A stretch of DNA of 36,232 nt, from IMG/VR virus record IMGVR_UViG_2684623127_000008; one strand, 5' to 3'. Shown piece after piece: positions 32,601-35,600 of the stretch (its first letter is position 1; each line of letters opens with the position of its first letter). The stretch comes from a virus (Duplodnaviria > Heunggongvirae > Uroviricota > Caudoviricetes). The position numbers were made by a program.

Positions 32601-35600
32601 TGCCTATAACGGCTGGCAGGTCCAGCCGTTGGCCGAAAAACCCCCATGATAGTAAGCTAATCAGGACAATACCGACTCCTGACCAGATAGCATAAGCAAT
32701 CCCTGTAGGAATATAAGCCAGCGTCTGAGCTAATAACCAGAATGATGCACAATAACAAATAATTGTACCAACAGATGGCCATAACCGTGTAAAACCTTCT
32801 GAAAACTTCATTAAGGTTGTACCAATGACCTCTGCAAGTATTGCACCACCAAGATAAATATAAGGGTTCATAACATATTCTTTCCTGTTCAAACTGGAGA
32901 GAATTGTACTACAGTTTGAACTCAACTCACCTGTTTCATCATTGTGTACCCATTGATGTTCTTTTATATACCCTCAATACCCGTTTCATCGCGGCACTCT
33001 GGCGACACTCCTTAAAAATCAGATTCGTGCTCACCTTTCCTTCCCGTTCTTCTCTGGTAGCGAACCGGTAATACACCGTTCGCCAGACCTTACCATCAAC
33101 GACCAGGATTCCTGCCCGCGCCATTTTAGCCGCAGCCTGATTTATGCTGGTTACGGTTGCACCTGTTACCGCGGCAACGTCCTGTGCACAGAAGCTCTTA
33201 TGCGTCCCCAGGTAATGAATAATTGCCTCTTTGCCCGTCATACACTTGCTCCTTTCAGTCCGAACTTAGCTTTAATTTCTGCGATCTTCGCCAGAGCCTG
33301 TGCACGATTTAGAGGTCTACCGCCCATAACAGGAAGTTGTTTTACTGGTTCAGGTATCGTCTCACCACGGTTAATTCGCGCTGTCATACAGGTCAGTTCA
33401 TCGGCAGCCTTGCGCCGTAATTCCGCGTCAGTCAGCGCATTGGCCCGCATGTTCTGGTACAAGTTGGTAACCAACCAGTAATGCGCGTTCGATTTCCACG
33501 GATAAGACTCTGCATCCGGATACAGGCCACGCTTCCGGCAATACTCGTAAACCATATCAACCAGCTCGCTGACGTTTGGCAGTCCGGCGATAACGGATGC
33601 TTCTTCCCGGCACCATGCAACAAACTGCCCGGGTGATGGCAGAAATGGTCGATTCTGCCGACGGGCTACGCGCATTCCTGCGTTAACCTGTTCCATTGTG
33701 GTGATCCCGTTTTCCCGGAAAGCCAGAACCCACTGGCGGCGGATTTCGTTCAGTTCGTTCTGGTCACGGTTAGCCAGACTCGCCGGGAAAGTTGCCAGTA
33801 ACTGGCTGAACACACCGTTGATGATCTGCGCTACCTGCTGTACCTGCGGCTTTTCGTCGTACTGTTCCGGCATGTTGTTGGCGATCCGACGCATCTGCTC
33901 ACGGTCAAAGTTAACCATCTGTGCGGCGATGTTTTTCATAAATCCACCCCGTAAATCCAGTCAGTGTTTGTCAGGTCGAGTTTTGGTTTGCTGGCTATCA
34001 TGCCTGCCTGTTGCTTGTTACGGTTGATTTCGAGCTGGGTCCACTTGTCGCGGAGTTTGGCCGGACTTAGCACGTTACCGGACCAGAAGTTGTCCTGGCA
34101 TGCCCAGCGGAACAGCACGCACATGTCGCGGTGGTTACGTCCGTCACGTTCACGCATCAGGCGGATATCGTTAGCCCACCCTGCAAAATTCGGTTTTCTG
34201 GCTGATGGCGCGATGGTCTTCACCATGTCAAACATCCACTCTGCGGCGGTCAGGTCTTCTGCTGTCCCCCACTTGCTGCCGCTCTGAATTGCAGCATCCG
34301 GTTTCACCACAGGAAGATCGTTTTCTGGTTGGTCAGAGGATTCGCCAGAATTCTCGGACGAAAAAGGTTTTATATTGTCTTTTGTTAGTTTGTCTTTTGT
34401 GTTTACCTGATTCGGGTAAACGCCTTTACCTGATTTGGGTAAACTTTTTTTACCTGATTCAGGTAAATTTACCTCTTTCAGGTAAACTTTATTTTTCTTA
34501 CCTGATTCGGGTAATGTTGACCATTCACTGACCACATTATTAATGCCGGTATTCCGCCCGCTCTGAATAAAAATCCCACGCTTTACCAGAACACTTTTTG
34601 CAGCAGAACACTTGTGCGGCAATATCCCGGTTAATTCGGAAAGTTGCTCGTTGCTAACCCAATCCAGTTTTTTATTAAAGCCATATGTTTTGCGCATGAC
34701 AGCCAGAAAGACCAGAAGCTGGTGAAAAATTGATAAATTCAATACTGCATTTCTCAGCATTAAATTTATCTCTATGACCAGTCAAGAGATGTACCTGCCA
34801 TGAGCTTAATATCATGTCAGATATATCGGTCACAAACTCCCTCAGCAGCTAAGAGGAGGACAAATGTCTCGACTAATCACTTTACGGGACTGGGCTAAAG
34901 AAGAATTTGGGGACTTAGCACCAAGTGAGCGAGTTCTGAAAAAATACGCGCAAGGGAAAATGATGGCCCCACCCGCTATAAAAGTTGGTCGCTACTGGAT
35001 GATTGACCGAAATTCCCGTTTTGTAGGAACGCTTGCAGAACCGCAACTCCCAATAAACGCAAACCCAAAACTCCAACGGATAATCGCTGATGGCTGCTAG
35101 CCCCCGATCTCACAAAATCTCTATACCCAATTTATATTGCAAATTAGATAAGCGAACCGGAAAGGTATATTGGCAATACAAACATCCACTATCCGGTCGT
35201 TTTCATAGCTTAGGAACTGATGAGAATGAAGCAAAACAAGTTGCTACTGAAGCAAATACCATTATTGCTGAACAACGTACCCGACAAATATTAAGCGTCA
35301 ATGAGCGTCTGGAAAGAATGAAAGGCAGGCGCTCAGACATTACGGTGACAGAATGGCTTGATAAATATAATTCTATCCAGGAGGACAGGCTGCAACATAA
35401 TGAACTAAGACCCAACTCCTATCGGCAAAAAGGCAAACCCATCCGTCTTTTCCGTGAGCATTGTGGAATGCAACACCTCAAGGATATTACCGCACTTGAT
35501 ATTGCCGAAATAATTGATGCTGTAAAGGCTGAAGGTCATAACAGGATGGCGCAAGTCGTGAGAATGGTGTTGATCGACGTCTTCAAAGAAGCACAACACG

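Follow-up and report, generated by a model that had tools for sequence, protein, structure and literature searches.

In phage lambda, the origin of replication (ori-lambda) lies in the linker-coding part of the initiator gene O and consists of four 17-bp dyads with the arms TCCCT/AGGGA followed by an AT-rich tract; to fire, it must be transcribed in cis from pR, either across the origin or close to it, and the C-terminal domain of the O protein is the part that contacts the helicase loader P. Related phages vary this design: lambda, P22 and L each have their own iterons within the initiator gene (PMC8022706), and Shiga toxin (Stx) phages carry extra iterons on the O-proximal side of a lambda-type origin, which lengthen O (PMC7466680). 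The six iterons of the Stx-phage origins (933W, P27) have the lambda sequence type, and lambda O binds them. Here we analyzed a 36,232-nucleotide stretch of viral DNA (Caudoviricetes; IMG/VR record IMGVR_UViG_2684623127_000008), hereafter the window, in which an O-type gene on the minus strand encloses five copies of the dyad TTACC-N7-GGTAA, that is, iterons of a sequence type different from that of the Stx phages, and one unit more than in lambda rather than two. We propose, with a probability of roughly 85%, that this is a lambda-type, O-dependent origin of a TTACC-N7-GGTAA class, which survives here as a relic in an Sp8-type prophage and does not fire alone.

A pattern search of the window gave five exact TTACC-N7-GGTAA dyads at 34403-34514, within the minus-strand open reading frame (ORF) of O (33936-34760), with start-to-start spacings, by rising coordinate, of 23, 24, 19 and 29 bp (Table 1). 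As a chance control, the whole 36-kb window was shuffled 100 times and searched for the same pattern with at most one mismatch. The shuffled sequences contained 0.56 matches on average, and none of the 100 reached the observed total of seven; the two one-mismatch matches elsewhere in the window, at 23903 and 25054, are isolated and within chance expectation. A sixth, degenerate iteron was not found within 34200-34760 at up to two mismatches, and the lone three-mismatch match in this interval, at 34709, corresponds to the background rate. The AT-rich tract directly follows the last iteron on the O-downstream side, and the GC content is 34.8% in the array and 25.6% in the tract as opposed to 54% in the rest of O and 52% in the window. 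The CAAAAGACAA motif of the tract was found again in P22, HK97, SEN34 and Klebsiella phage GZ7. The original prediction, made from the sequence alone, had described five such copies at 19-29 bp spacing followed in the direction of O by an AT-rich stretch; both elements are present as described, and the interval that it gave, 34340-34514, covers the array as well as the tract.

Table 1. Positions of the origin components, the adjoining replication genes and other features of the window (sequences in O sense)
Feature	Position	Strand	Remarks
Iteron 1 (first in O-sense direction)	34498..34514	-	TTACCCGAATCAGGTAA; codon phase 0, LPESGK; extra fifth unit, no lambda counterpart
Iteron 2	34469..34485	-	TTACCTGAAAGAGGTAA; codon phase 2, YLKEVN; aligns with lambda/434 gpO site 1
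Iteron 3	34450..34466	-	TTACCTGAATCAGGTAA; codon phase 0, LPESGK
Iteron 4	34426..34442	-	TTACCCAAATCAGGTAA; codon phase 0, LPKSGK
Iteron 5	34403..34419	-	TTACCCGAATCAGGTAA; codon phase 2, YPNQVN; adjoins AT-rich tract
AT-rich tract	34360..34402	-	25.6% GC; two copies of CAAAAGACAA; presumed DNA-unwinding element; homologous to lambda/434 AT-rich part
Right flank of origin	34300..34359	-	Near-identical to lambda/434; imperfect inverted repeat GAGGATTC/GAATTCTC; starts lambda-type C-terminal half of O
O' pseudogene	33936..34724	-	Codons 48-309 of Lambda_4C10-type O; first 47 codons missing (77 by longer database annotation)
Deletion junction	34724..34725	.	Left, O codon 48; right, sequence just upstream of xis in intact phages; microhomology at most 1 bp
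Foreign 12-codon head of O'	34725..34760	-	MLRNAVLNLSIF; supplies in-frame ATG at 34760
P gene (helicase loader), intact, lambda-type	33238..33939	-	Overlaps O stop codon; Phage_lambda_P, 233 amino acids, E = 9.5e-62; ren next
emrE (small multidrug resistance (SMR) efflux pump) and 508-amino-acid large serine recombinase (ybcK-like) cargo	30768-32925	-	Between ren and nin genes
IS3-family insertion sequence	24887-26100	-	OrfA 25774-26100 (HTH_Tnp_1); OrfB 24887-25777 (rve); Rfam ALIL frameshifting pseudoknot 25703-25819
IS009	160-358	-	Full-length Rfam match, 229 bits; within tail-fibre-assembly ORF 120-701

For comparison with ori-lambda we used the phage 434 record, which carries the lambda origin and in which a rep_origin and four protein_bind 'gpO' features are annotated. 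Iterons 2-5 of the window align unit for unit with these four gpO sites, and the last three spacings, read in the O sense, are 19/24/23 bp compared with 20/24/23 bp in lambda. Relative to lambda/434, iteron 1 represents an added unit of 30 bp (10 codons) on the O-5' side. Besides the 17-bp core dyads, the two origins share their location in the O linker, the AT-rich tract, the right flank, the O C-terminal domain and the P loader, and the tract and all sequence 3' of it are near-identical to lambda. In phage phi80, annotated gp15 sites are located at the same place in an O-type gene. In contrast, the arms in the window are TTACC/GGTAA in five units, the O N-terminal domain (N-domain) is about 49% identical to that of lambda, O has lost its N terminus and the control region has been deleted. 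The module is of mixed make-up because the dyad arms and the N-domain differ from lambda while the AT-rich tract and the 3' part are near-identical; on sequence comparison, an N-domain and iterons of one specificity are joined to a lambda-type AT-rich tract, C-terminal domain and P.

Conservation of the iterons was assessed against Klebsiella phage GZ7, in which the N-domain DNA is 78% identical to the window, all five units are at identical offsets and the N-domain is paired with a DnaC-type loader. The dyad arms are identical at 49 of 50 positions and the 17-bp cores at 78 of 85, whereas the spacers agree at 20 of 33 positions (61%). Moreover, one and the same 17-mer type is read in two codon phases within the ORF, three times in phase 0 (LPESGK/LPKSGK) and twice in phase 2, as YLKEVN and YPNQVN. 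The codon phases and the pattern of conservation indicate that the constraint on the iterons acts at the DNA level and not on the protein.

The arms, or in one case the spacer, also distinguish the window from the other O-type origins that we compared. At the equivalent place in their O genes, HK97 and a Yersinia phage carry TTAGC-N7-GCTAA, SEN34 has a looser TTAGC/GCTAA form, phi80 has GGGAA-N5-TTCCC at its annotated gp15 sites, and lambda itself is TCCCT-N7-AGGGA. The origin in P22 gene 18 (L006 1261-1340) comes closest, with TTACC-N5-GGTAA. Among the classical phages gene 18 also has the closest N-domain (58.6% identity), and about four repeats of ~20 bp in the same position are followed, as in the window, by the CAAAAGACAA AT-rich motif. 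The P22 dyads are less regular, however, and the class found here has the same half-sites with a longer spacer, 7 bp compared with 5 bp; P22 furthermore uses a DnaB-type helicase (gene 12), whereas the window uses P. The shared half-sites at two spacer lengths provide a hint that specificity classes can differ by spacer length.

Full-length O genes with TTACC-N7-GGTAA origins were found in 15 phage records that are 97-100% identical, including Lambda_4C10, 4A7, Perceval and the PhiR series. These coliphages have the same iteron type, number and spacing as the window, with 97-100% DNA identity over 34300-34724; iteron type, number and spacing are also shared by the Klebsiella phages GZ7 and KO-TP1, which are ~80% identical with conserved arms and have a DnaC-type loader. 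Unlike in the window, O is full-length in both groups and follows an immunity/regulatory region with Cro- or CII-like genes. No origin is annotated in the records of Lambda_4C10, 4A7, Perceval, PhiR, GZ7 and KO-TP1. Of 5426 complete E. coli genomes, 2416 (~45%) carry the N-domain/iteron segment. Judged by these comparisons, the TTACC-N7-GGTAA origin is one more specificity class of a well-known design, and a common one. The finding is mainly of use for annotation, since an O/ori specificity class that ranks among the commonest in E. coli prophages is now defined and has an iteron consensus.

In natural O proteins of the class, the number of iteron-encoding units is two, three, four or five (P0008, P0010, P0013, P0014 and P0016 versus P0003 in alignment A5), and this variation suggests that units may be lost or gained through recombination between iterons. 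In the databases, O begins 30 codons upstream (339 amino acids, MTGSEMAK...) of the lambda-equivalent start (MANTAE..., 309 amino acids; Lambda_4C10, L002 3067-3156; P0001/P0003). The 339-amino-acid annotation is probably an over-extended start call, because many homologues do not have the 30-codon extension and the model shows it as disordered.

Altogether, the position-by-position homology with the annotated lambda/434 origin and the conservation at the DNA level support the ori-lambda architecture that had been recognized in the original prediction, and the comparison with other O-type origins supports the different O/ori specificity type that it had proposed. It had treated the element as an origin inside an O gene. 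In the window, this gene is a pseudogene that has lost its 5' end and is joined to DNA from upstream of xis, and the element, although an origin by descent, most likely no longer functions as one.

The window contains a lambda-like tail, terminase, Q, nin genes, ren and P, after which the truncated O (O') is joined directly to xis-int. The same 1.2-kb O'-xis-int segment is found at 100% identity in many E. coli O157:H7 chromosomes, in which xis and int, a lambda-family integrase, are intact and int adjoins icd. The O157 prophage at icd is Sp8 (PMC8190617). It has been described as being without CI/Cro and recombination functions but as having int, xis, a lambda-type loader and complete morphogenesis genes (PMC2669165, Table 1), and no circularization, replication or packaging was observed in experiment (PMC2669165, Tables 1 and 2). 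The window resembles Sp8 of O157:H7 Sakai in the icd site, int and xis, the lack of cI/cro and recombination genes, the lambda-type loader and the complete lambda-like morphogenesis, lysis and Q genes, and on the basis of integration site and gene content it is an Sp8-type defective prophage of E. coli O157:H7 at icd. The Sp8 junction is present in 295 complete genomes. A remnant of the K-12 prophage DLP12, which the emrE/ybcK cargo might suggest, was rejected, as the integration is at icd and the identical loci are those of O157:H7. The two descriptions differ in one respect: in 2009 the O and P genes of Sp8 were considered apparently functional, whereas in the window, and in the RefSeq annotation by the Prokaryotic Genome Annotation Pipeline (PGAP), O is truncated at its N terminus.

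Homology of O' to intact O genes ends at 34724, and from 34725 onward the window matches, at 99.7% identity, the DNA that lies immediately upstream of xis in 1H12 and other intact phages. Phage 1H12 carries the same int-xis module, and there the sequences that meet at the junction are ~8 kb apart, with exo, bet, gam, kil, N, repressors and cII in between. A single clean deletion fused the region upstream of xis to O codon 48, and pR was presumably deleted along with the immunity genes and cII. Consistent with the truncation, the ORF matches Pfam Phage_rep_O, N-terminal to the array, at profile positions 28-95 of 95 only, and RefSeq (PGAP) flags the replication coding sequence as 'incomplete; missing N-terminus', i.e., as a pseudogene.

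To place the truncation in the protein, we used an AlphaFold model of the full-length O homologue P0003 (339 amino acids; alignment of 19 sequences), which is of moderate quality. The predicted winged-helix domain comprises helices 56-72, 77-90, 102-109 and 113-125 and a wing at 129-138, with predicted local distance difference test (pLDDT) scores of 71-89. The linker, residues 149-226, has a pLDDT below 50 and is encoded by the iterons and the AT-rich tract. A Foldseek search with the model returned CRP/FNR and MarR winged-helix domains as weak matches (E of 0.017 or weaker), which are consistent with a winged-helix fold but are no proof of it, and the O N-domain had no significant match among PDB sequences (best E = 0.34). 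O' is without the modelled helix 56-72, the first of the winged-helix domain, which carries the conserved VADLDDGYTRIANELLEA segment and the columns D57, G58, R61, N64 and L66 that are invariant in alignment A5. The predicted recognition helix and the wing are kept.

By analogy with lambda, the five dyads would be occupied by dimers of the cognate O, which would bend or wrap the DNA into an O-some, the adjacent AT-rich tract would then open, and P would deliver host DnaB at the opened tract. The origin is encoded in the predicted flexible linker between the winged-helix domain of O and its lambda-type C-terminal domain, and the deletion removed the early regulatory and recombination region together with the predicted first helix of the DNA-binding domain. 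O codons 1-47 are absent from the window, which leaves no intact cognate initiator in cis, and with the loss of the stretch that carries the immunity genes and cII in intact relatives, rightward early transcription from pR through or near the origin is presumably missing as well. The origin should not fire alone because it has neither an intact cognate O in cis nor pR transcription. The truncation of O offers a simple explanation for the failure of Sp8 to replicate or circularize, and its defined junction corrects the published impression of functional Sp8 replication genes. We see no sign of a new mechanism, and the locus appears to be an ordinary relic, neither a working nor a new origin.

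Several points weigh against this interpretation. Asadulghani et al. (2009) scored O and P of Sp8 as '+' and 'apparently functional' (PMC2669165), and our assignment to Sp8 is based on integration site and gene content and not on an alignment with the Sakai genome. The in-frame ATG at 34760 opens an uninterrupted ORF of 274 codons, from which a shortened O might in principle be produced, perhaps with some binding left. The structure model is moderate (N-domain pLDDT 71-89, 19 sequences) and the fold matches have E values of at least 0.017. O binding and replication for the TTACC-N7-GGTAA type are taken over from the lambda paradigm, and we found no paper that names or quotes these iterons, a full-text search with the iteron string having returned unrelated primers only.

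The alternative that survives best is that a cognate O from a co-resident or superinfecting phage binds the Sp8 iterons in trans, which would lead to regional replication of Sp8/icd or would make the array an O-titrating sink that damps the other phage. We consider this unlikely, although the iterons and the AT-rich tract are preserved at 100% relative to viable phages, P is likewise intact, and the same ori type is found in 45% of complete E. coli genomes. The required partners also coexist. Alongside the Sp8 junction, O157 strain 155 carries another prophage, whose O is intact, with the full 309 codons and five iterons of the TTACC-N7-GGTAA pattern (L012 8292-9221; record 2959178-2960107). 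A probe spanning the breakpoint matched 2404 genomes, only 126 of which have no intact copy; as the junction is present in 295 genomes, at least 169 junction-bearing genomes must also encode an intact cognate O. The second prophage of strain 155 further contains P, a repressor of the XRE family, a SIR2-family gene, and Q followed by Ile, Arg and Arg tRNA genes.

The literature offers precedents for such an interaction, as ectopic lambda origins inhibit cognate phages (PMC4488673; PMC3349717) and regional replication of flanking prophages has been documented in O157 (PMC2669165). However, the inhibition phenotypes were obtained with multicopy plasmids, and one study required oop transcription (PMC3349717), the oop region being deleted here. 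In an Rfam search, neither an oop-like RNA nor any other RNA family was identified in or near the origin region. Five sites in one chromosomal array would also make a weak sink, and firing of a lambda origin needs transcription in cis, for which pR is deleted in the window. In Sakai, Sp8 was not amplified after mitomycin C (PMC2669165), which is telling only if Sakai holds a second cognate O. That the orphan origin captures foreign O, from a second prophage or during infection by one of the very common 4C10-type phages, and thereby seeds over-replication of icd/Sp8 or acts as a decoy, seems to us slightly less likely again. If this were true, the prophage relic would be retained as a site of cross-talk or interference, and its interaction with a co-resident cognate O would add one more case of prophage-prophage cross-talk in the O157 prophage pool.

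We regard it as very improbable that O', produced from the ATG at 34760, renders the origin fully functional here despite its truncation. The ORF with this start codon is followed by an intact P, the predicted recognition helix and wing are retained, and Sp8 replication genes were given a '+' by Asadulghani et al. Against this, the protein would be without helix 56-72 and its five invariant residues, and neither pR nor cro nor cII is available. A scan of 34600-35000 for promoters of O' revealed no sigma-70-like site, and the start of the fusion ORF is overlapped by a terminator-like hairpin (minus strand, 34770 to 34732). The pseudogene call in RefSeq (PGAP) and the experimental finding that Sp8 does not replicate (PMC2669165) argue in the same direction. 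The hairpin, which has a 16-bp AT-rich stem and a T-run and is located just upstream of xis, occurs in intact phages too, 1H12 among them.

Least probable of all is that the repeats only encode a low-complexity linker of LPESGKK-like units and have no role at the DNA level: the units do lie within an ORF, three of the five give near-identical peptides and the linker is predicted to be disordered, but the other two units yield unrelated peptides in another codon phase and yet keep the DNA dyad, the perfect 5+5 dyad symmetry would be meaningless for a protein, between E. coli and Klebsiella phages the arms agree at 49/50 positions whereas the spacers are 61% identical, and the units coincide with the gpO sites annotated in phage 434, and we rejected this explanation on the evidence of codon phase and conservation.

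The relic origin of the TTACC-N7-GGTAA class is thus the reading that we retain for this locus. Elsewhere in the window, there are an IS3-family insertion sequence, an IS009 match and a cargo segment between ren and the nin genes (Table 1). The emrE/ybcK-like cargo is also located after ren in phage Lambda_4C10, and its large serine recombinase gene is intact in the window but frameshifted in O157:H7 strain TR01.

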